The notes under the pieces were generated by a model that was given only the letters and a program-made list of their open reading frames with translations, made no database searches and was not told the DNA's origin. Both the position numbers and the translations under genes were made by a program. From Promethearchaeota archaeon (lineage in GTDB: Archaea > Asgardarchaeota > Lokiarchaeia > Sigyniarchaeales > SOKP01): a stretch of DNA of 64,000 nucleotides. Where the stretch lies: NCBI GenBank assembly GCA_016840085.1, contig JAEOTA010000004.1, positions 32,001 through 96,000 of the forward strand, written 5' to 3'. This document shows, piece by piece, positions 19,367 through 42,316 of the stretch; positions within the stretch are counted from its first letter, which is position 1; each line of letters starts with the position of its first letter.

Positions 19367-20494
19367 ATGGTTAAATATATTTATAAAGAATTCAAAAGTG
19401 TATTAAACAAATTAAAATATCCAGATTCTTGGTTTTGGGCGCGCTATACCTTAAATGCATATTTTGGATGTGCCCACGCATGCATATATTGTGATGCCCG
19501 AAGCCAACGATATTATTTAAAAGATTTTGAGAATGAAGTCATTATCAAAACTGATTTTGATAAAAAATTAGATCTCAGACTTAAAAGAGCTCGAACATTG
19601 TTGCCTGATGTAATAGCTCCAGGTGGTGTAAATGATGCATATCAACCTATTGAAAAAAAAGTTAAACAAACAAGAAAGGTCTTGCAAGTTATAGCAAAAC
19701 ATAAATTTCCAATAAATATCGCTACTAAATCAAAATTAATTACTCGAGATATTGATATTCTTAAAAAAATCGCAGCTGATACTTGGTGTACTATAGGATT
19801 CTCGATATCTACCACGAATGTAGAATTAGCGAAATTTTTGGAACCATATTCTTCCCCTCCTTCAGAACGCCTTGAAGCATTAAAAATTATAAAAAAAGAA
19901 GCACCTAAAATCCAAGTTGGCACCTACTTTATTCCAATCATTCCCTTTTTAGAAGATGATGAAAATAATTTAGAAGATGTAATTAAAAAGACAAAAGAAA
20001 CTGGAGCAGATTTTATATTAATTAGTCCTGGTTTGACGTTAAGGGATTTACAAGCAGAATATTTCATTAAAAAACTAAAAAAAAGTAAATATCAACATGT
20101 TGTTAAACTACTTTTAAACTTATACAAAGGTCAAATGCATCCTCCTGCTGATTATGTCCACAAGATGCATTTAAAACTATTTAGTTTATCTCAAAAATAT
20201 AATCTACCTCTTCGTGCGAAAAGATGGATCCCAAAGGATTATAGGAAATGGAATTATAAAATTTCTGAAATTTTGTTGAACAAAGAATACATTGATCTCA
20301 TAAAAACAGGTATATCAAATACAACCATGAAATGGGCTGGTTTAAAATTGAATAATCTGAAAGAATCGATAATCGATGTATATAAAAATGGTAGAATTGA
20401 CCAGTTAGAAGGTTTTTATAAAAAAGAAATCAATATTATTAAACCCTATGTAGAAAAATTTGATAAAAAAACAAATTTAGATAAATTTTTATGA
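19367..20494 (+). CDS. SPL/Rv2578c-like radical SAM protein (DNA-repair associated)
   Basis: NAYFGCAHACIYCDAR, DAYQPIE, IATKS, LEPYSSPPSERL; C-terminal PIP-box-like TNLDKFL. Confidence 0.85.
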   Translation: MVKYIYKEFKSVLNKLKYPDSWFWARYTLNAYFGCAHACIYCDARSQRYYLKDFENEVIIKTDFDKKLDLRLKRARTLLPDVIAPGGVNDAYQPIEKKVKQTRKVLQVIAKHKFPINIATKSKLITRDIDILKKIAADTWCTIGFSISTTNVELAKFLEPYSSPPSERLEALKIIKKEAPKIQVGTYFIPIIPFLEDDENNLEDVIKKTKETGADFILISPGLTLRDLQAEYFIKKLKKSKYQHVVKLLLNLYKGQMHPPADYVHKMHLKLFSLSQKYNLPLRAKRWIPKDYRKWNYKISEILLNKEYIDLIKTGISNTTMKWAGLKLNNLKESIIDVYKNGRIDQLEGFYKKEINIIKPYVEKFDKKTNLDKFL

Positions 20495-21237
20495 CGATTT
20501 CTGATATTATCACAAGCATAATAAAAGATAACCTCAAAAAAACAGCTCCTTCCTTAACTAACGACCAAATTAGACGAAGAGATAGGGTTTTAAATTCAGA
20601 TAATCCTAATTTTATAGGATATGGACATACACTCTCAGAAATAGAAAAAATCGTAAGGTTAATTCATAAAGATTACCCTTGTAGTTATGAGGAAGCTATT
20701 ACTGTTTTCAAGAATTTGGTTAGCTCCAACGTTCATGAAGAGAAATTTGCAGGAATTTTCTTTCTTAATCGATTTAAAAACAGTTTTAATGATGATACTA
20801 TTGATATGTTAGAACAACAGATTTCTAAACACTGTGATACATGGGCTTTCTGTGATAGTAGCTGTATTAGAGTAATTGCCCCATTTCTCGGAAAAAAAAC
20901 CAATCAAAAACTAGCTAAGAAGACTATTGAGAAATGGTCAAATTCAGAAAATCTATGGATTAGAAGAGCATCTCTAGTTATTTCGCTTAAGATTGTAATG
21001 ATTAAAAAAGAATTCGATGAGACGCATGTGTTCGATTTTGTTGAAAAAATGATTACAATACCAGAAGATTATATCCAAAAAGCAATTGGCTGGCTTCTCA
21101 AAACCTGTTCAAAATTTAATCTAGAATCAATTTTCAATTACTTGATGAAAAATAAAATGAAGCTTCCCCGTTTAATTCTTAGATACGCAAGTGAAAAACT
21201 GTCTCAAGAAAAGAGGGAGCAAGTGCTAAAGAAATAA
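20491..21237 (+). CDS. AlkD-like DNA alkylation repair protein
   Basis: DTWAFCD, WSNSENLWIRRAS, YIQKAIGWLLK HEAT-like motifs; overlaps the upstream stop (ATGA). Confidence 0.88.
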   Translation: MTISDIITSIIKDNLKKTAPSLTNDQIRRRDRVLNSDNPNFIGYGHTLSEIEKIVRLIHKDYPCSYEEAITVFKNLVSSNVHEEKFAGIFFLNRFKNSFNDDTIDMLEQQISKHCDTWAFCDSSCIRVIAPFLGKKTNQKLAKKTIEKWSNSENLWIRRASLVISLKIVMIKKEFDETHVFDFVEKMITIPEDYIQKAIGWLLKTCSKFNLESIFNYLMKNKMKLPRLILRYASEKLSQEKREQVLKK

Positions 21238-21360
21238 GAGAACATGTTTTAATATAGGATTTTTTTGAAAAATAGAATATCCCCTATCTTCTTATTCAAA
21301 AGTATTAAATACTGTCTTGTCAAAGTTATACTTAATCCAATTAATATTGGGTGAAGAAAC

Positions 21361-21423
21361 ATGAAATCTAATTTAAAGAAAATAATACTATTGATTATAT
21401 TTGGAGTAATTTTATCATTTTGA
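21361..21423 (+). pseudogene. Orphan signal-peptide-like remnant (MKSNLKKIILLIIFGVILSF*)
   Basis: GGTGA SD-like motif upstream; resembles the N-terminus of the 25625 surface protein (MKSKLKQIIALIAII); stops after 20 codons. Confidence 0.4.
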
Positions 21424-21656
21424 TAAATACAAATTTTTTTTTAAGTACTTTTTACTCCCAAGTTCTTTTAATTTTTGACAAAACTATAAAAATGCTTAAC
21501 TCTTAAACTACTATGACATAAAAATGTCGACATCGAAATTTCAATGATTATTCATTTTCAGCCAAAATTACATCTGGAAGTAAAGTAATTACAATATTTA
21601 TTGTAAATAAAAGAGTTGAATTAAAAATAAAATACAAAGTAAGATCTATATCAATT

Positions 21657-24056
21657 TTGATATATCTAATATTTGTTTTTGGTGTTTTTTCAATAGTTAA
21701 ATTTGATGAATCGAAACCTACTTACAATTATAGCATTTTTGGTGAAAACTTTACAATTAAATCAAGTTCTTCTAAGTATACTAATGCTACGGTAATTTCG
21801 GATGACTATACTAATTGGAATAATGATAATAGCTATGATCCTTCAATTGCTGTAGATGATGGTGGAAACCTTCATGTGGTGTGGCATGATCATACTAATG
21901 GTCCATGGGGTTCTGATACTGAGATAATGTATGTGAATTATTCTTCTTCAGCCGGATGGTCTAATGCTATTGTAATTTCGGATAACGGTACTAATTGGAA
22001 TAATGGAATTAGTGAAAATCCCTCAATTGCTGTAGATGATGGTGGAAACATTCATGTGGTGTGGCATGATCATACTGATGGTCCATGGGGGACTGATATT
22101 GAGATAATGTATGTGAATCATTCTTCCTCAGCCGGATGGTCTAATGCTATTGTAATTTCGGATGATGGTACTAATTGGAATAATGATAATAGTAGGAACC
22201 CTTCAATTGCTTTAGATAGTGATGGAAACATTCATGTGGCATGGCATGATCTTACTGATGGTCCATGGGGAACTGATACTGAGATAATGTATGTGAATCA
22301 TTCTTCCTCAGCCGGATGGTCTAATGCTACAGTAATTTCGGATGATGGCACTAATTGGAATAATGATGAGAGTATATCGCCTTCAATTGCCATAGATAAT
22401 GGTGGAAACATTCATGTGGTGTGGCATGATCTTACTGATGGTCCATGGGGAACTGATGGTGAGATAATGTATGTGAATCATTCTTCCTCAGCCGGATGGT
22501 CTAATGCTATTGTAATTTCGGATGATGGTACTAATTGGAATAATGGTGATAGTAGGAACCCTTCAATTGCTGTAGATAATGGTGGAAACGTTCATGTGGT
22601 GTGGCATGATTTTACTGATGGTTCATGGGGTACTGATATTGAGATAATGTATGTGAATCATTCTTCTTCAGCCGGATGGTCTAATGTTATTGTAATATCG
22701 GATGACGGTACTACTTGGAATGATGGGGCGAGTTATGAGCCTTCAATTACTGTAGATAATGGTGGAAACATCCATGTGGTATGGTATGATTCTACTTATG
22801 GTCCATGGACAAGTGGTGCGGATACTGAAATAATGTATGTGAAATATTCTTCATTAGCTGGATGGTCTAATGCTACAGTGATTTCGGATGGATCTGGGGG
22901 TATCTATTGGAATGATGATGACAGTGAGTACCCTTCTATTGCTGTAGATAATGGTGGAAACGCTCATGTGGTGTGGCATGATTTTACTGATGGTCCATGG
23001 GGAACTGATAGTGAGATAATGTATACATTCATCGGTGATATAGTACCAGTTATTATAATAAATTCTCCTACTCCAAATGAATATATTGGAAGTGTTGCTC
23101 CACACTTCAATATTTCCATTGTTGGACTGTTTTTAAACACTACATGGTATACTTTAGATGACGGAAAAACCAATATAACATTCAGCGGATTAACTGGAAC
23201 AATCAATCAAACAGAATGGGCCAAGAAAGGAAATGGTACAGTGACTATTAGATTCTATGCGAATAATACCGCAGGTAAAGAGGGATATGATGAAGTAACT
23301 GTCTACAAAGATACCATTGCGCCAATTTCATCAATATCCTACATTGTCCATAAAGAACCAAATATGGTGAATATATCAACAACTTTTACATTAACTGCCG
23401 ATAATGCGAGTGGATCTGGGGTTTCTGTGATTAGATATAAAATTAATGATTCCGGCTGGTTAGATTATAATTCCCCCTTTGACTTAGATTTATATGCGTA
23501 TGGTGATCTTCTTATCTCGTATCAAGCAATCGATGAAGTTGGTAATATTGAAACAGTAAACACAGAACTGGTGGAATTGATGGGACCTCCTTCTGAACCA
23601 TGTGAACTTGTTAAACTTTTGCAAGTGGAGATAACTGAAAATTCTTATTCGACTGAACACTTCAATTTCACGTTCTTAGTATTTAACGAGCTTGGACAAG
23701 CGATTGATTTCGCAACAATTCAGATCTGGTGGAATGGAAATGATGTTTCTGATGATGTTGTTAATCTCGGAAATGGACTATATTTTGTATCTTTAGAACC
23801 CAAAACAGTAGCACCTGGAGAAGATCCAATCCTACTTAAAATGATAATCTCTGCTTCTGGATATGAAGATAAACTGTTTGAAACGTATCTTGCTGTTGAT
23901 CCTGAAACTTTAGAAAAAGAAGTAGGAAAAGGAGCTGAAGGAGTTCCTCTCGTAACAATCATTATCGCAATTATATCAACTGTAAGTGGAATATCAGTAG
24001 CCGCAGCAGCAGTAGTCCTATTGCGTAAAAGGAAACGAGCTAGTGAAGTTATATAA
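21657..24056 (+). CDS. Cell-surface protein: 7 x ~60-aa beta-propeller-type repeats, Ig-like stalk domains, C-terminal TM anchor
   Basis: N-terminal hydrophobic segment; repeats PSIAVDxGGNxHVVWHD...EIMYV; many NxS/T sequons; C-terminal TM followed by RKRKR. Confidence 0.88.
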   Translation: MIYLIFVFGVFSIVKFDESKPTYNYSIFGENFTIKSSSSKYTNATVISDDYTNWNNDNSYDPSIAVDDGGNLHVVWHDHTNGPWGSDTEIMYVNYSSSAGWSNAIVISDNGTNWNNGISENPSIAVDDGGNIHVVWHDHTDGPWGTDIEIMYVNHSSSAGWSNAIVISDDGTNWNNDNSRNPSIALDSDGNIHVAWHDLTDGPWGTDTEIMYVNHSSSAGWSNATVISDDGTNWNNDESISPSIAIDNGGNIHVVWHDLTDGPWGTDGEIMYVNHSSSAGWSNAIVISDDGTNWNNGDSRNPSIAVDNGGNVHVVWHDFTDGSWGTDIEIMYVNHSSSAGWSNVIVISDDGTTWNDGASYEPSITVDNGGNIHVVWYDSTYGPWTSGADTEIMYVKYSSLAGWSNATVISDGSGGIYWNDDDSEYPSIAVDNGGNAHVVWHDFTDGPWGTDSEIMYTFIGDIVPVIIINSPTPNEYIGSVAPHFNISIVGLFLNTTWYTLDDGKTNITFSGLTGTINQTEWAKKGNGTVTIRFYANNTAGKEGYDEVTVYKDTIAPISSISYIVHKEPNMVNISTTFTLTADNASGSGVSVIRYKINDSGWLDYNSPFDLDLYAYGDLLISYQAIDEVGNIETVNTELVELMGPPSEPCELVKLLQVEITENSYSTEHFNFTFLVFNELGQAIDFATIQIWWNGNDVSDDVVNLGNGLYFVSLEPKTVAPGEDPILLKMIISASGYEDKLFETYLAVDPETLEKEVGKGAEGVPLVTIIIAIISTVSGISVAAAAVVLLRKRKRASEVI
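21781..23027 (+). repeat. Intragenic tandem repeat, 7 units of about 180 bp
   Basis: Units begin CTAATG at 21781, 21961, 22141, 22321, 22501, 22681 and 22867; long stretches are identical between units. Confidence 0.97.
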
Positions 24057-24333
24057 TTTCTATTACTAATTTTTCTTTTTTAATTACTTTTTCTTCCCAC
24101 GATCTTTTGTATTGCATAGTTATTGTAGCCTTCCCGCGCGTAAGAGATAAAAAACTGAAATGTTCTGTGCCGCCTCCACCCAGTTTTGGACTTAATGGCA
24201 TATAGGATTTTTCCTTAAGCTCTACAAAACTAGTATCAAAATCTGCATCCCAACGATAACCTGTACTCGGATTGGAACCTAAAGAAACCTTAAAAACATC
24301 TCCAAGCTTTACTTTAATTATCTTTTGATTCAT
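24049..24333 (-). CDS. Chagasin-family (I42) cysteine protease inhibitor
   Basis: NPSTGYRW, GGGG and YKRSWE loop motifs. Confidence 0.9.
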   Translation of the reverse strand: MNQKIIKVKLGDVFKVSLGSNPSTGYRWDADFDTSFVELKEKSYMPLSPKLGGGGTEHFSFLSLTRGKATITMQYKRSWEEKVIKKEKLVIEII

Positions 24334-24371
24334 ACTTAATTTCTATATAAAAATTATCAAATTTTAATTTG

Positions 24372-24409
24372 AAGACTAAAAAAATTTTTATGAGAATCTA
24401 TACTTTATT
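24372..24409 (+). repeat. 38-bp direct repeat, copy 1 (upstream of the HAD gene)
   Basis: AAGACTAAAAAAATTTTTATGAGAATCTATACTTTATT; 36/38 identical to 25135-25172. Confidence 0.85.
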
Positions 24410-24454
24410 CCAAAATTCGATTAACTAAAAAGACAGATATAATAGTAGAATCCT

Positions 24455-25135
24455 ATGAAATATAAGGCTATTATTTTTGATCTATTCGGTACTCTTGTCG
24501 ATAATTATTCAGTTCAGGGATACAACAGATTATTAACAGATATGGCTTCAGCTCTCGAATTACCTGGTAAAGATTTTTCAAAACTTTGGCGTGATACAAC
24601 TTATGAGCGCGGAATTGGGACTTTTAAAACCACCGAAGAAAGTATAAGATATATTTGTAATATACTTGAAGTATCTGTAAGTGATGAAAAAATGAGGAAA
24701 TGTGAACAGATCAGAATAGAAAGCATCCGCAAAGCTTTAACTCCTAAAAATGGAGCTATTGAAATTTTAAAAGGTCTAAGGGGATTAGGATATAAGATTG
24801 GATTAATAACTAATTGCTCTGCTGATGTACCTCTTTTTTGGAAAAATACAGAATTCTCTCATTTCTTTGATGTTACAATATTCTCCGCTTCAGTAGGTTT
24901 GAAAAAACCGGACTCTCAAATATATAATTTAGCATGTGAACAATTAGGAGTCGAACCAGACACATGCCTTTACATTGGAGATGGTGATAGCAATGAACTC
25001 TCGGGAGCTTCTCAGTTTGGTATGGATGCTGTTATGATCCGTGATCCAAATGAGATAGATCCCTATCATTTAGTTGAGATAAATTGGAATGGTCGAATAA
25101 TTGAATCTTTCATGGAGATAATGGATCTGATTTAA
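24455..25135 (+). CDS. HAD-superfamily hydrolase
   Basis: IIFDLFGTLV, ITN, KKPD, YIGDGDSNEL. Confidence 0.93.
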   Translation: MKYKAIIFDLFGTLVDNYSVQGYNRLLTDMASALELPGKDFSKLWRDTTYERGIGTFKTTEESIRYICNILEVSVSDEKMRKCEQIRIESIRKALTPKNGAIEILKGLRGLGYKIGLITNCSADVPLFWKNTEFSHFFDVTIFSASVGLKKPDSQIYNLACEQLGVEPDTCLYIGDGDSNELSGASQFGMDAVMIRDPNEIDPYHLVEINWNGRIIESFMEIMDLI

Positions 25136-25172
25136 AGACTAAAAATATTTTTATGAGATTCTATACTTTATT
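25135..25172 (+). repeat. 38-bp direct repeat, copy 2 (at the HAD stop codon)
   Basis: AAGACTAAAAATATTTTTATGAGATTCTATACTTTATT. Confidence 0.85.
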
Positions 25173-25231
25173 TTTTATCTTATTCGGGATTAAATTTAAT
25201 TTTTAATTACGAATTAAGATTAATCATCTCA

Positions 25232-25425
25232 GCCAAGGTGGCGTAGCCCGGTATGCATTGGAGCTTTTCCACTGATGGGTAAGAACGCACCAGATCCATC
25301 GGATTTACCGAGAAAGGTGATACTGAAGATCTGGGTATCGAGAACTCTGGTTGTTTCAACCATTTTCGATAAGGTTCAAAGAAAAAGCCCAATTTTGAGT
25401 TTTTTTGGGACTCCCTCCCTTGGCA
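25232..25425 (+). tRNA. tRNA-Phe(GAA) with four BHB introns (about 20/20a, 30/31, 51/52, 59/60)
   Basis: Removing 25253-25281, 25294-25321, 25343-25372 and 25381-25411 gives GCCAAGG TG GCGT AGCCCGGTAGA ACGC A CCAGA CTGAAGA TCTGG GTATC GAGGG TTCAAAT CCCTC CCTTGGC A (76 nt, all stems Watson-Crick). Confidence 0.92.
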
Positions 25426-25624
25426 AGTTTTTTTCTCTTTTTTTAATAAAGTATGTAAAAATAAATGTCATCATAAAAGAAAAAAAGGATATCCTAATCG
25501 AAGATTAGTATCTTATTGATTTTAATTGTATAATTTTGGTCCTCATACATTATATTTACGAAGATATTAAATTATTAAAAACACTTAGAATGTTGTTCTA
25601 ATAAATTTTTTAAGTGAATATTCA

Positions 25625-28600
25625 ATGAAATCCAAATTAAAACAAATAATAGCTTTAATAGCTATAATATTGCTTATAACTTTTTCTTCAACAATTTATA
25701 TAAATTTATATGCTTATATCGATAACACCAATAATAAATCGTCTACAAATCCAGATGAGAATATGTCCACATTAAGCAGTAGTTCAAAAAGTCTCATCTA
25801 TCATGAAGATTTTAACGATACGTCGAGTTTTTGGGATCTGTATGATGTACCAAAGAGAACAATGGCTTTATCTTACCTTCCGAGTGATGATGCCTATACA
25901 AGTTCAGCAGATCCTTATGAGTATTACGGATCACAATCTCAATGTAAAGTAACTAATGAACCAGAATGGACTTTTTCTGGAGAATCATGGTTCATAGGTT
26001 CTCATTGGACATTTCCTCTCGATATTTTCTGGGATGGAAGTAATTGGTGGTTGCTAGATATTAATTATCGCATAGTAAAAAAATATTCTTCTTCATGGGG
26101 TTATACTGGGGTACATTATGATCTTAGTCCTCAAAATGATGCACCAGCAGATATTTTTTGGGATGGAGCTAATTGGTGGATGCTTTCATTCGATAATATT
26201 GTTTATAAGTATGATGCTTCTTGGGGTTATACTGGGATTTCTCATGATCTCAGTTCTGAAGAAGATAATGCCCAAACTTTCTTTTGGGACGGGAATAATT
26301 GGTGGACAGCAGGAGGCGGTAATCAAAGAATTTATAAATATGATTCTTCTTGGAGCTATACAGGAATTTCTTATGATATTAGCATCTTAGGTATAATACC
26401 CCAAGATATTTTTTGGTGGGATGGAGGTTATTGGTGGGTACTTGATAGTTCTATTTCCTATATATACTTGTTCGATTCTGATTGGGTCTATACTGCGATT
26501 TCTCATGATCTCAGCTCTCAAGATAATCACCCATTAAGTATATTTTGGGAAGGAACTAATTGGTGGATGGTTGGATCTAATGATATTATGGTCTATAAAT
26601 ACGATTATACACCATGGGACAATCATGAATGGATTTACACGGGAATTTCTTATGATTTTAATCCTATTTTTTATGAACCAATCGATGTTTTTTGGGGGTA
26701 TGGGGATTGGTGGATACTTGGACTCGATAGCCAAAGTTATAACTGGAGAGCGTATAAATATTCTTCTTCATGGGAATTTACAGGAGATCAAATCAATCTT
26801 ACTCCTATAGTTGAAGAGCCAATTGACTTTTTTTTTCATGATAGTGCTGTGATATATGTGATTGGATATAATAATTCACCCACTCCTGCAATTACCAGAT
26901 TTTCATCCGACTGGGACGTATTTGATATTTCTTTTGAACTTTACGAAGATGGAGACCCAGAAAGTATATGTTGGGATGGAACTCATTGGTGGATGTTAGG
27001 AAGTGAGAATGATAGGGTTTATCAATATGAAGATCATTTTGATTATTGGATGTATACTGAAGTTACATATGACATAGGCACTCAAAATAGCAATCCAAGA
27101 GATATATTCTGGGATGGAACTAATTGGTGGATGTTAGGAGGCAATGGAAAAATTTATAAATATACATCTTCTTGGGATTATACTGGAATCTCTTTTCCTC
27201 TTAGTTCTCAAGATAGTGATCCAACAAGTATATGTTGGGATAATTGGTATAATCATTGGTGGATGCTTGGTGCTGATCAAGGTATGATGTTTAAATATTT
27301 GGAACCAAGGGGGGAAGAGTATAGTTTTATTAAAAAGGAATTTCCCTATCTCTATACGAATTATACACAAAATTCCAACTTACGATGTTACGTGAATGAT
27401 GGTGTTTTTCCTTCAACTATTTACTCTTTTTCTACCTCAAATTTTAACGAAGCATCTATCATTTGGGATAATCAACCATCAGAAGTAGATTCTTTAGCAA
27501 GTTCAGTGGTTACAGGAACTGGTTGGGCTACAATAAATCTAAGCCACCCCTTTTATTATTATCTACTTAAATGTGATTCAAATTCTATAGAGTTTAGTTC
27601 TTCAGAAGCCTCCAGTAATCATCCCACGATAAATTACTATCTCAGCAAACATTACCAAGGAGGAGGAATATTGTATTGTCAGACAAATGAATCGGAGGTC
27701 TTAACTTTAAGAAGTCCAAATAGTTATAATTTTAATTTAAAAAAAGGAGATAGTATAGAAATTACATTTAACACGACTTCTTCAAATAAAATAGATTTTA
27801 ATCTGAGATACACAGGAATAGAACAAAAGAGTTTTACGTTTTCAGAAATGGGAAATATAGATTTTACTACTCGAACAGTTGAGTTAATACTTGATGAAGA
27901 TATGACTATTGATCAATTTGAAATTAGTGGATTGTTTGATGTGACAAAGAACTTGATTATCGATGAAATCAGAATATATACTCCTTCAATTTATATTGTC
28001 ACTCCAGAAAATAAGACTTATACTGGACCGATAGATGGATATTATCCTGCTACTTATTCGTTTGATGAGGGTGCTCTAGGTGAAGACCCGATTAATTGGA
28101 TAGTAGATGAGACAGGCGGAACTTGCAATGTTATAGGGGACATCGCTGGTCATAAGAGTGTAATTGAGCTTAATGATAAATCAGATCCTAATCAAGTTAG
28201 AGTAAGTAATTATTTCAATCCTCAGATTTCAGGAATCCTTGAATTTTGGTGGATGACCAATAATGTAACAAAAAATTCTTACTTCAGGTTAAATCAGGAT
28301 AATATTATTGGAGTGAATTTGAGAATCTCTGATGGTTATTTCGGTTATTATGATTCAAGTCTGCATCAAATAAAAATAATTGAAAACAATAAATGGTATC
28401 ATCATCAAGTTATATTTAACGCTTCAAAAGACAAGTATGATTGGTACATTGATGGGATCCTTGAAGTAAATGACGCTAATTTTGATAATCCAATAAATCT
28501 TCCAAATAGACTCTTATTTGAATCACATACTACTATGAATGATTATTGTACTTATTATGATGCGATTGGGTATTCATGGGACCCTAATTACAATATTGGC

Positions 28601-41223: not shown

Positions 41224-41327
41224 TGGGCCTGGCAGGATTCGAACCTGCGACATCCCAGTCCGAAGCCGGGCACCCTTTCTGTTTTTTTCCTTATTGGAAA
41301 AAAATATCCAGACTAGATTACAGGCCC
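41224..41327 (-). tRNA. tRNA-Arg(TCG) with a ~29-nt D-loop intron
   Basis: GGGCCTG/CAGGCCC acceptor, CCCGG-CTTCGGA-CTGGG, GCAGG-TTCGAAT-CCTGC; the D-loop is interrupted by hairpin TTTTTTTCC-AATAA-GGAAAAAAA with a TCTG/CAGA central helix. Exact junctions uncertain. Confidence 0.93.
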
Positions 41328-42208: not shown

Positions 42209-42316
42209 GCCCACATAGTGTAGCCCGGTCCAGCATTCGGGACTGTCACTCCTGCGACGCGGGTTCAAAAAAAATATGGTTTCTCCGTGTTTTGGAACAT
42301 CCCGCTGTGGGCGCCA
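42209..42316 (+). tRNA. tRNA-Asp(GTC) with a 30-nt T-loop intron (58/59 or 59/60) and encoded CCA
   Basis: GCCCACA/TGTGGGC acceptor, CGGGA-CTGTCAC-TCCTG, GCGGG-TTCAAA[42270-42299]T-CCCGC, then G-CCA. Confidence 0.94.

Follow-up and report, generated by a model that had tools for sequence, protein, structure and literature searches.

The locus examined here raises the question of whether a single archaeal tRNA gene is divided by four introns, none of them at the canonical site, and, if so, where these introns begin and end, how they would be spliced out and how they came to be there. The gene had been predicted, from the letters of a 64,000-nt stretch of a Promethearchaeota archaeon contig (the whole of which we call the window), as a tRNA-Phe(GAA) in five exons at 25232-25425. 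These limits, the exon and intron counts and the anticodon all held up, and the sequence left after intron removal is a clean cloverleaf; going by its sequence, the segment is a genuine, functional-looking tRNA-Phe gene with four non-canonical introns.

Anatomy and intron boundaries of the tRNA-Phe gene

Structurally, the gene occupies 194 nt of the forward strand, on which all features given here lie, and encodes no CCA; its five exons (20, 11, 21, 8 and 14 nt) are separated by BHB introns totalling 120 nt at positions 19/20, 30/31, 51/52 and 59/60, and this mapping bears out the first reading that the 37/38 site is empty. Exon 1 (25232-25251; 20 nt, positions 1-19 including 17a), one base shorter than first read, is followed in the D loop by intron 1 (25252-25282; 31 nt, 19/20), an HBh' type with central helix GCCC/GGGT (4/4), cuts between GG and T and between AA and G, and a 2-bp inner helix leading to an imperfect hairpin. 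Exon 2 (25283-25293; 11 nt, positions 20-30) runs into the anticodon-stem intron 2 (25294-25321; 28 nt, 30/31), a relaxed BHB with CACC/GGTG paired 4/4 and one pair on either side. Exon 3 (25322-25342; 21 nt, positions 31-51) holds the anticodon GAA at 25325-25327 and precedes the T-stem intron 3 (25343-25372; 30 nt, 51/52), an hBH type, predicted to be preformed in the precursor, with central helix ATCG/CGAT (4/4) and a 5-bp outer helix that joins positions 41-45 to 53-57. Exon 4 (25373-25380; 8 nt, positions 52-59) is followed by the T-loop intron 4 (25381-25411; 31 nt, 59/60), in which TTCA/TGGG pairs 4/4, with two G-U pairs, between a 7-bp inner and a 2-bp outer helix (hBHBh'), and exon 5 (25412-25425; 14 nt, positions 60-73) ends in discriminator A. 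Two T7 runs downstream (25428-25444) are likely an archaeal-type terminator, and the AT-rich region upstream (25150-25231), 91-93% identical to that of the sister species G024, is the probable promoter; an unaligned tally of upstream regions brought out no conserved TATA position. The gene is flanked on one side by what we take, from its motifs, to be a HAD-like hydrolase and on the other by a 1374-aa ORF. It lies within a variable stretch (19367-31024). Many relatives have counterparts of the ORFs 19367-21237 and 29776-31024 next to their tRNA-Phe gene; the large repeat-rich ORFs at 21657-24056 and 25625-29749 are matched in few of the compared loci, some of which have short flanks.

The original prediction placed a 4-bp central helix with 3-nt bulges at every intron, and this geometry, with 4/4 pairs and a cut after the second bulge base, is found at all four junctions once the helix sequences of intron 1 are corrected. 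In shuffled introns, the probability of a 4/4 central helix was 0.007, 0.003, 0.015 and 0.022 for introns 1-4, respectively (joint ~6e-9). Introns 1, 3 and 4 also have a flanking helix of at least 2 pairs; intron 2 has a single pair per side here, and its inner pairs number as many as 10 among the orthologs. Introns 2, 3 and 4 lie exactly where they had been placed, and the lengths of the last three exons stand; revised are intron 1, previously read as 25253-25281 and thus one base off at each end, the lengths of the first two exons (formerly 21 and 12 nt), the intron total (formerly 118 nt) and the product (formerly 76 nt).

Both registers of intron 1 are geometrically possible in this genome: a 29-nt intron at 20/20a, leaving a 76-nt tRNA with an 11-nt D loop, would have a central helix (CCCG/TGGG) that is likewise 4/4, and ARAGORN accepts the 76-mer as tRNA-Phe(gaa). 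In three intron-less orthologs (L017, L051 and L077), however, the D loop reads AGCCCGGGA, 2 bases shorter than the 76-nt reading, and alignment of the spliced gene to this intron-less template gives intron 1 as 25252-25282, at 19/20. Among the 32 orthologs that bear intron 1, the 19/20 register has a 4/4 central helix in all 32 and the alternative in 29, failing in three; the first inner pair of the 19/20 helix covaries (G-C 15, A-T 10, G-T 4, T-A 2, T-G 1), and the two additional bases that the longer tRNA would keep, absent from the intron-less genes, vary freely (T/A and A/G/T). The contigs of relatives without intron 1 join at 25251/25283, orthologs that have none or only some of the introns lack the insert exactly at the predicted junctions, and the same four intron boundaries came out of a template-free parse combining an HMM with pairing. 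Because of the intron-less orthologs, the covariation, the parse and the contig joins, we place intron 1 at 19/20 and hold the 29-nt register to be very improbable; this gives a mature tRNA of 74 nt.

Intron removal from six other orthologs gives exactly the corrected 74-mer, which has no stem mismatches, is called Phe(gaa) by ARAGORN and differs from intron-less L017 only in two compensated T-stem pairs; it is to L017, as a stand-in for the spliced product, that an RF00005 score of 64.9 bits belongs. One DNA unitig, which may derive from the source sample itself, covers 24916-25700 with zero differences. That the locus might be a pseudogene or an assembly chimera, the working gene lying in the unassembled part, is suggested by the several tRNAs and the EndA alpha subunit that the assembly lacks, and it is opposed by the intact exons and compensated stems, the identical unitig, the synteny of the locus with the single tRNA-Phe loci of relatives and the four-intron versions in nine other genomes, so that we regard it as extremely improbable.

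Predicted splicing machinery and order of intron removal

Functionally, we expect the gene to be transcribed as a single ~194-nt precursor, whose four BHB or relaxed-BHB motifs would be cut after the second bulge base by an Asgard (alpha-beta)2 EndA with the relaxed specificity of its L1 loop, after which RtcB would ligate the exons and addition of CCA would give a 74+3-nt tRNA. EndA is the expected route because an (alpha-beta)2 enzyme with an L1 loop conferring relaxed specificity has been reported for Asgard archaea (PMC5829648), and the earlier argument that splicing of this gene calls for such an enzyme appears right. The assembly encodes RtcB (contig C83) and one EndA subunit (C79:3618-4226; L031 1210-1818), which lacks the catalytic histidine in an alignment to Methanocaldococcus structure 1a79 and is thus a beta subunit. 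An alpha subunit was found in five relatives, with Tyr/His/Lys and an L1-type loop Lys, and was not found in this assembly by Pfam, TIGR00324 or tblastn with the relatives' alpha subunits; despite a stated completeness of 98.8%, its absence is probably an assembly gap.

It had also been proposed that the D arm, the anticodon arm and the T arm cannot fold before splicing and that splicing is perhaps ordered. The former was overstated: intron 1 sits in the D loop, and the anticodon stem does form in part (27-30/40-43) in the predicted precursor. An obligatory, nested order, in which each removal creates the next BHB, would accord with the double use of positions 53-57, by intron 3 in its outer helix and by intron 4 in its central and outer helices, with the use of C25-C28 by intron 2 as well as by the D and anticodon stems, and with the prediction that intron 3 alone is preformed. 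The central helices, however, occupy disjoint exon stretches (15-17a, 25-28, 46-49 and 54-57), none of which crosses another intron; every exon has at least 8 nt; all four helices can be enforced at once (-50.5 versus -69.4 kcal/mol for the free fold); and the orthologs carry many different subsets of introns. Across all intermediates, ViennaRNA gives central-helix probabilities of ~1.0 (intron 3), 0.02-0.5 (intron 1) and at most 0.02 (introns 2 and 4), the low values being weak evidence in that nearest-neighbour models penalise BHB bulges. Removing any subset barely alters the probabilities of the remaining introns, predicted BHB formation staying near constant across the 15 intron-containing intermediates, so that the folding probabilities yield no order and no BHB is predicted to be unlocked by the removal of another intron. 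An obligatory order is thus not supported by these models or imposed by the geometry, and we consider it unlikely.

We favor instead a scheme in which the four motifs form independently and the introns are probably removed singly, with local refolding and no fixed nested order. Intron 3 would be removed most readily, and introns 2 and 4 would have the anticodon stem and the T arm as competitors; because the helix probability of these two is so low in every intermediate, enzyme-induced refolding must be assumed for them. The introns themselves would be dispensable passengers, coming and going among related species. That the locus is a functional tRNA-Phe(GAA) gene, spliced by EndA and RtcB at four motifs without a fixed order and bearing dispensable introns, is in our judgment highly probable.

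The genome-wide tRNA set

A purpose-written, intron-aware scan of the whole assembly (G000) returned 36 loci above 20 bits, against one in a reversed-sequence control that held no match above 25 bits; the tRNA-Phe gene scored 38 bits. There are 37 tRNA genes in all, and the scan found no further ones in the unmasked genome. tRNA-Phe is single copy in the assembly, with no second gene among the 37 or by exon patterns, GAA stem-loops or the intron-aware scan; the assembly is incomplete, since Cys, His and several other tRNAs are missing from it, and a second Phe gene may lie outside it. An ARAGORN 'Phe' on contig C77, with an 825-nt intron, is unsupported by the intron-aware scan. The concern that standard scans could miss the gene proved well founded: ARAGORN, with intron mode on or off, and Rfam RF00005 both pass over the unspliced gene, and common finders would thus call tRNA-Phe absent in this genome.

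Introns interrupt 31 of the 37 genes and leave six intron-free (mean ~1.3 per gene once four imperfect parses are corrected by eye), and their lengths cluster at 28-31 nt. Phe is the only gene with four; Ile(TAT), Trp and, counted by eye, Leu(CAA) have three. The first of these (G000:C32:27182-27368, minus strand; introns of 31, 27 and 54 nt) belongs to the UAU-type Ile tRNAs, which are uncommon in archaea. On the same contig, a selenocysteine-like tRNA with a TCA anticodon (24385-24526, plus strand) probably has two introns, as it is ~54 nt longer than the intron-less copy in G024 (L219 201-288). Within the window, ARAGORN and Rfam both overlook two other intron-containing tRNA genes, each conserved in the sister G024, namely tRNA-Arg(TCG) (41224-41327, minus strand), with a 29-nt D-loop intron at 20a/21, and tRNA-Asp(GTC) (42209-42313, plus strand), with a 30-nt intron at 59/60. 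ARAGORN's intron mode mistypes several genes that have non-canonical introns (on C81, C83 and C19), calling, for instance, Glu(CTC) at C81:6390 Leu and Ile(GAT) at C81:31475 Ala. Copying of the tRNA-Phe introns from other tRNAs of the same genome is unsupported, with best matches of 0.48-0.53 against a shuffled 95th percentile of 0.46-0.52, and the idea that the introns might play a box C/D role was dropped, as short motifs gave no consistent C plus D pair.

Orthologs, intron turnover and known systems

A survey of orthologs from the same genus, a collection biased toward genes with an intact 5' exon in which named matches are overwhelmingly Promethearchaeota/Promethearchaeia MAGs (Lokiarchaeia), comprised 53 distinct genes with 0-4 introns on one 74-nt body: three have none, 12 one, 16 two, 12 three and 10, this gene included, four. 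With 10 of 53 at that number, four introns in tRNA-Phe are common within the group. The DNA that matches the locus best comes from marine sediment metagenomes of one study. The introns occupy nine positions (15/16, 19/20, 22/23, 30/31, 37/38, 51/52, 53/54, 58/59 and 59/60), '52/53' labels being a template artefact (A52) for introns that pairing and BHB put at 51/52; the four-intron genes have three position sets, and intron sequences group by position only, in families of up to 21 members. Two Methanomassiliicoccales loci (L034 and L071) were excluded as non-orthologs. Five loci titled Hermodarchaeota, Hodarchaeota or Odinarchaeota (L035, L057, L070, L074 and L075) carry Loki-type tRNA-Phe alleles, with the same neighboring genes where flanks were matched, and their off-group titles probably reflect submitter labelling or mis-binning. 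In G015, the 15/16 intron (L009 1466-1495) includes 11 nt that repeat the anticodon arm of its own tRNA, CTGAAGATCTG; in L014 and L198 this copy is degenerate. Chance could account for it, or it might hint that the intron originated by local duplication.

Evolutionarily, we set these intron patterns against a single-gene rpoB DNA tree, used in place of a protein-level tree whose resolution was too low. On the DNA tree, the nearest sampled relative is G024 (20% third-position divergence). Its tRNA-Phe gene (G024:C7; L198 minus strand 1501-1663) is syntenic with that of G000, the upstream 780 nt being 91% identical and the downstream gene homologous after ~1 kb, and has introns at 15/16, 22/23 and 37/38, sharing none of the four. 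The exons of G002 and G015, both more distant, match those of G024, and the 15/16 introns of G002 and G024 are 29/30 identical; the last 16 bases upstream of the G024 gene also resemble G002 and G015, which suggests that a replacement tract begins just upstream of the gene. Over 18 genomes, the rpoB tree requires 32 changes in intron presence and shuffled labels 32.9, and 13 (non-independent) pairs of same-position introns are 93-97% identical at 32-42% rpoB third-position divergence; introns common to G000 and G024 have a median identity near 0.8 at 20%. At 29 isotype-matched tRNA loci of G000 and G024, counted by eye with G024 genes taken mostly from Rfam hits and so biased to few-intron genes, the intron set is the same at 18 and different at 11.

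Given the G024 intron set, the lack of signal on the rpoB tree, the near-identical introns in distant species and the 11 differing loci, the sequences suggest between-species allele exchange as the simplest reading of this turnover. We see roughly an even chance that replacement of whole or partial alleles between species, by recombination at the same locus, is the main way in which tRNA introns spread within this genus of Lokiarchaeia, rather than independent de novo insertion or vertical descent; the four-intron gene would then be a mosaic of circulating ~30-nt introns. The identity of the 19/20 intron declines with distance (rho -0.69), and vertical descent therefore also contributes. As alternatives, the turnover could stem from deep ancestral polymorphism or from repeated, precise losses combined with selection on the sequence of the introns, or be only apparent, if the tree of this one gene misleads or MAGs are chimeric at their tRNA genes. 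If allele exchange is the true explanation, some reconstructed intron 'gains' would be transfers.

The gene is a clear example of an already published phenomenon and not a record intron count, and Lokiarchaeia, a class with cultured members, joins the lineages with four-intron tRNAs. The evidence of turnover, which was unplanned, is of more interest than the count, pointing to a change of intron sets in Lokiarchaeia that is rapid and possibly horizontal, and the ortholog series of 0-4 introns on a near-identical 74-nt body offers a substrate panel for Asgard EndA and multi-intron precursors.

The four introns had been put forward as possibly new, and Asgard genes with as many are on record. 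In three Asgard genomes, 92-95% of tRNAs are interrupted (Valentin-Alvarado 2024, PMC11291895), with four introns in Atabeya-2 Trp and in Freya Arg(TCT), Ile2 and Leu(GAG), four by tRNAscan and three by R2DT in Atabeya-2 Lys(TTT), and three in tRNA-Phe (PMC11291895, Supplementary Data 4). Those Atabeyarchaeia and Freyarchaeia genes are likewise Asgard, with several non-canonical introns each, whereas here it is Phe, in Lokiarchaeia, that has four, and the genome-wide burden is lower (~1.3 per gene, 31/37). The main text of a preprint by Goswami et al. (bioRxiv 10.64898/2026.10.13.758758), whose focal families are Freyr-, Jordi- and Atabeyarchaeaceae, describes up to five intervening sequences per Asgard tRNA gene, systematically missed D-arm introns, BHB enrichment and an (alpha-beta)2 EndA, and states that in no case has splicing in a cell been demonstrated for the newly identified Asgard intervening sequences. 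It reports no copying between tRNA types, as in our within-genome check, and no general route of arrival, an open question on which allele exchange, if true, would bear; that main text does not contain 'Loki', 'Promethe', 'horizontal', 'recombination' or 'conversion', whereas here intron sets appear reassorted between species at one locus. The older maximum was three introns per tRNA gene, in Thermoproteales and Caldiarchaeum (PMC3293823), against four in the present tRNA-Phe. Like it, these lineages have BHB introns away from the canonical site, 30/31 and 59/60 among them, both of which are listed as non-canonical (PMC4090602). In Thermoproteales, introns have been copied across tRNA types (PMC4090602; PMC3293823), which is not seen in this genome, and in Caldiarchaeum, the gain or loss of an intron by a single tRNA locus in very closely related organisms has been attributed to recombination with mobile elements (PMC3293823).
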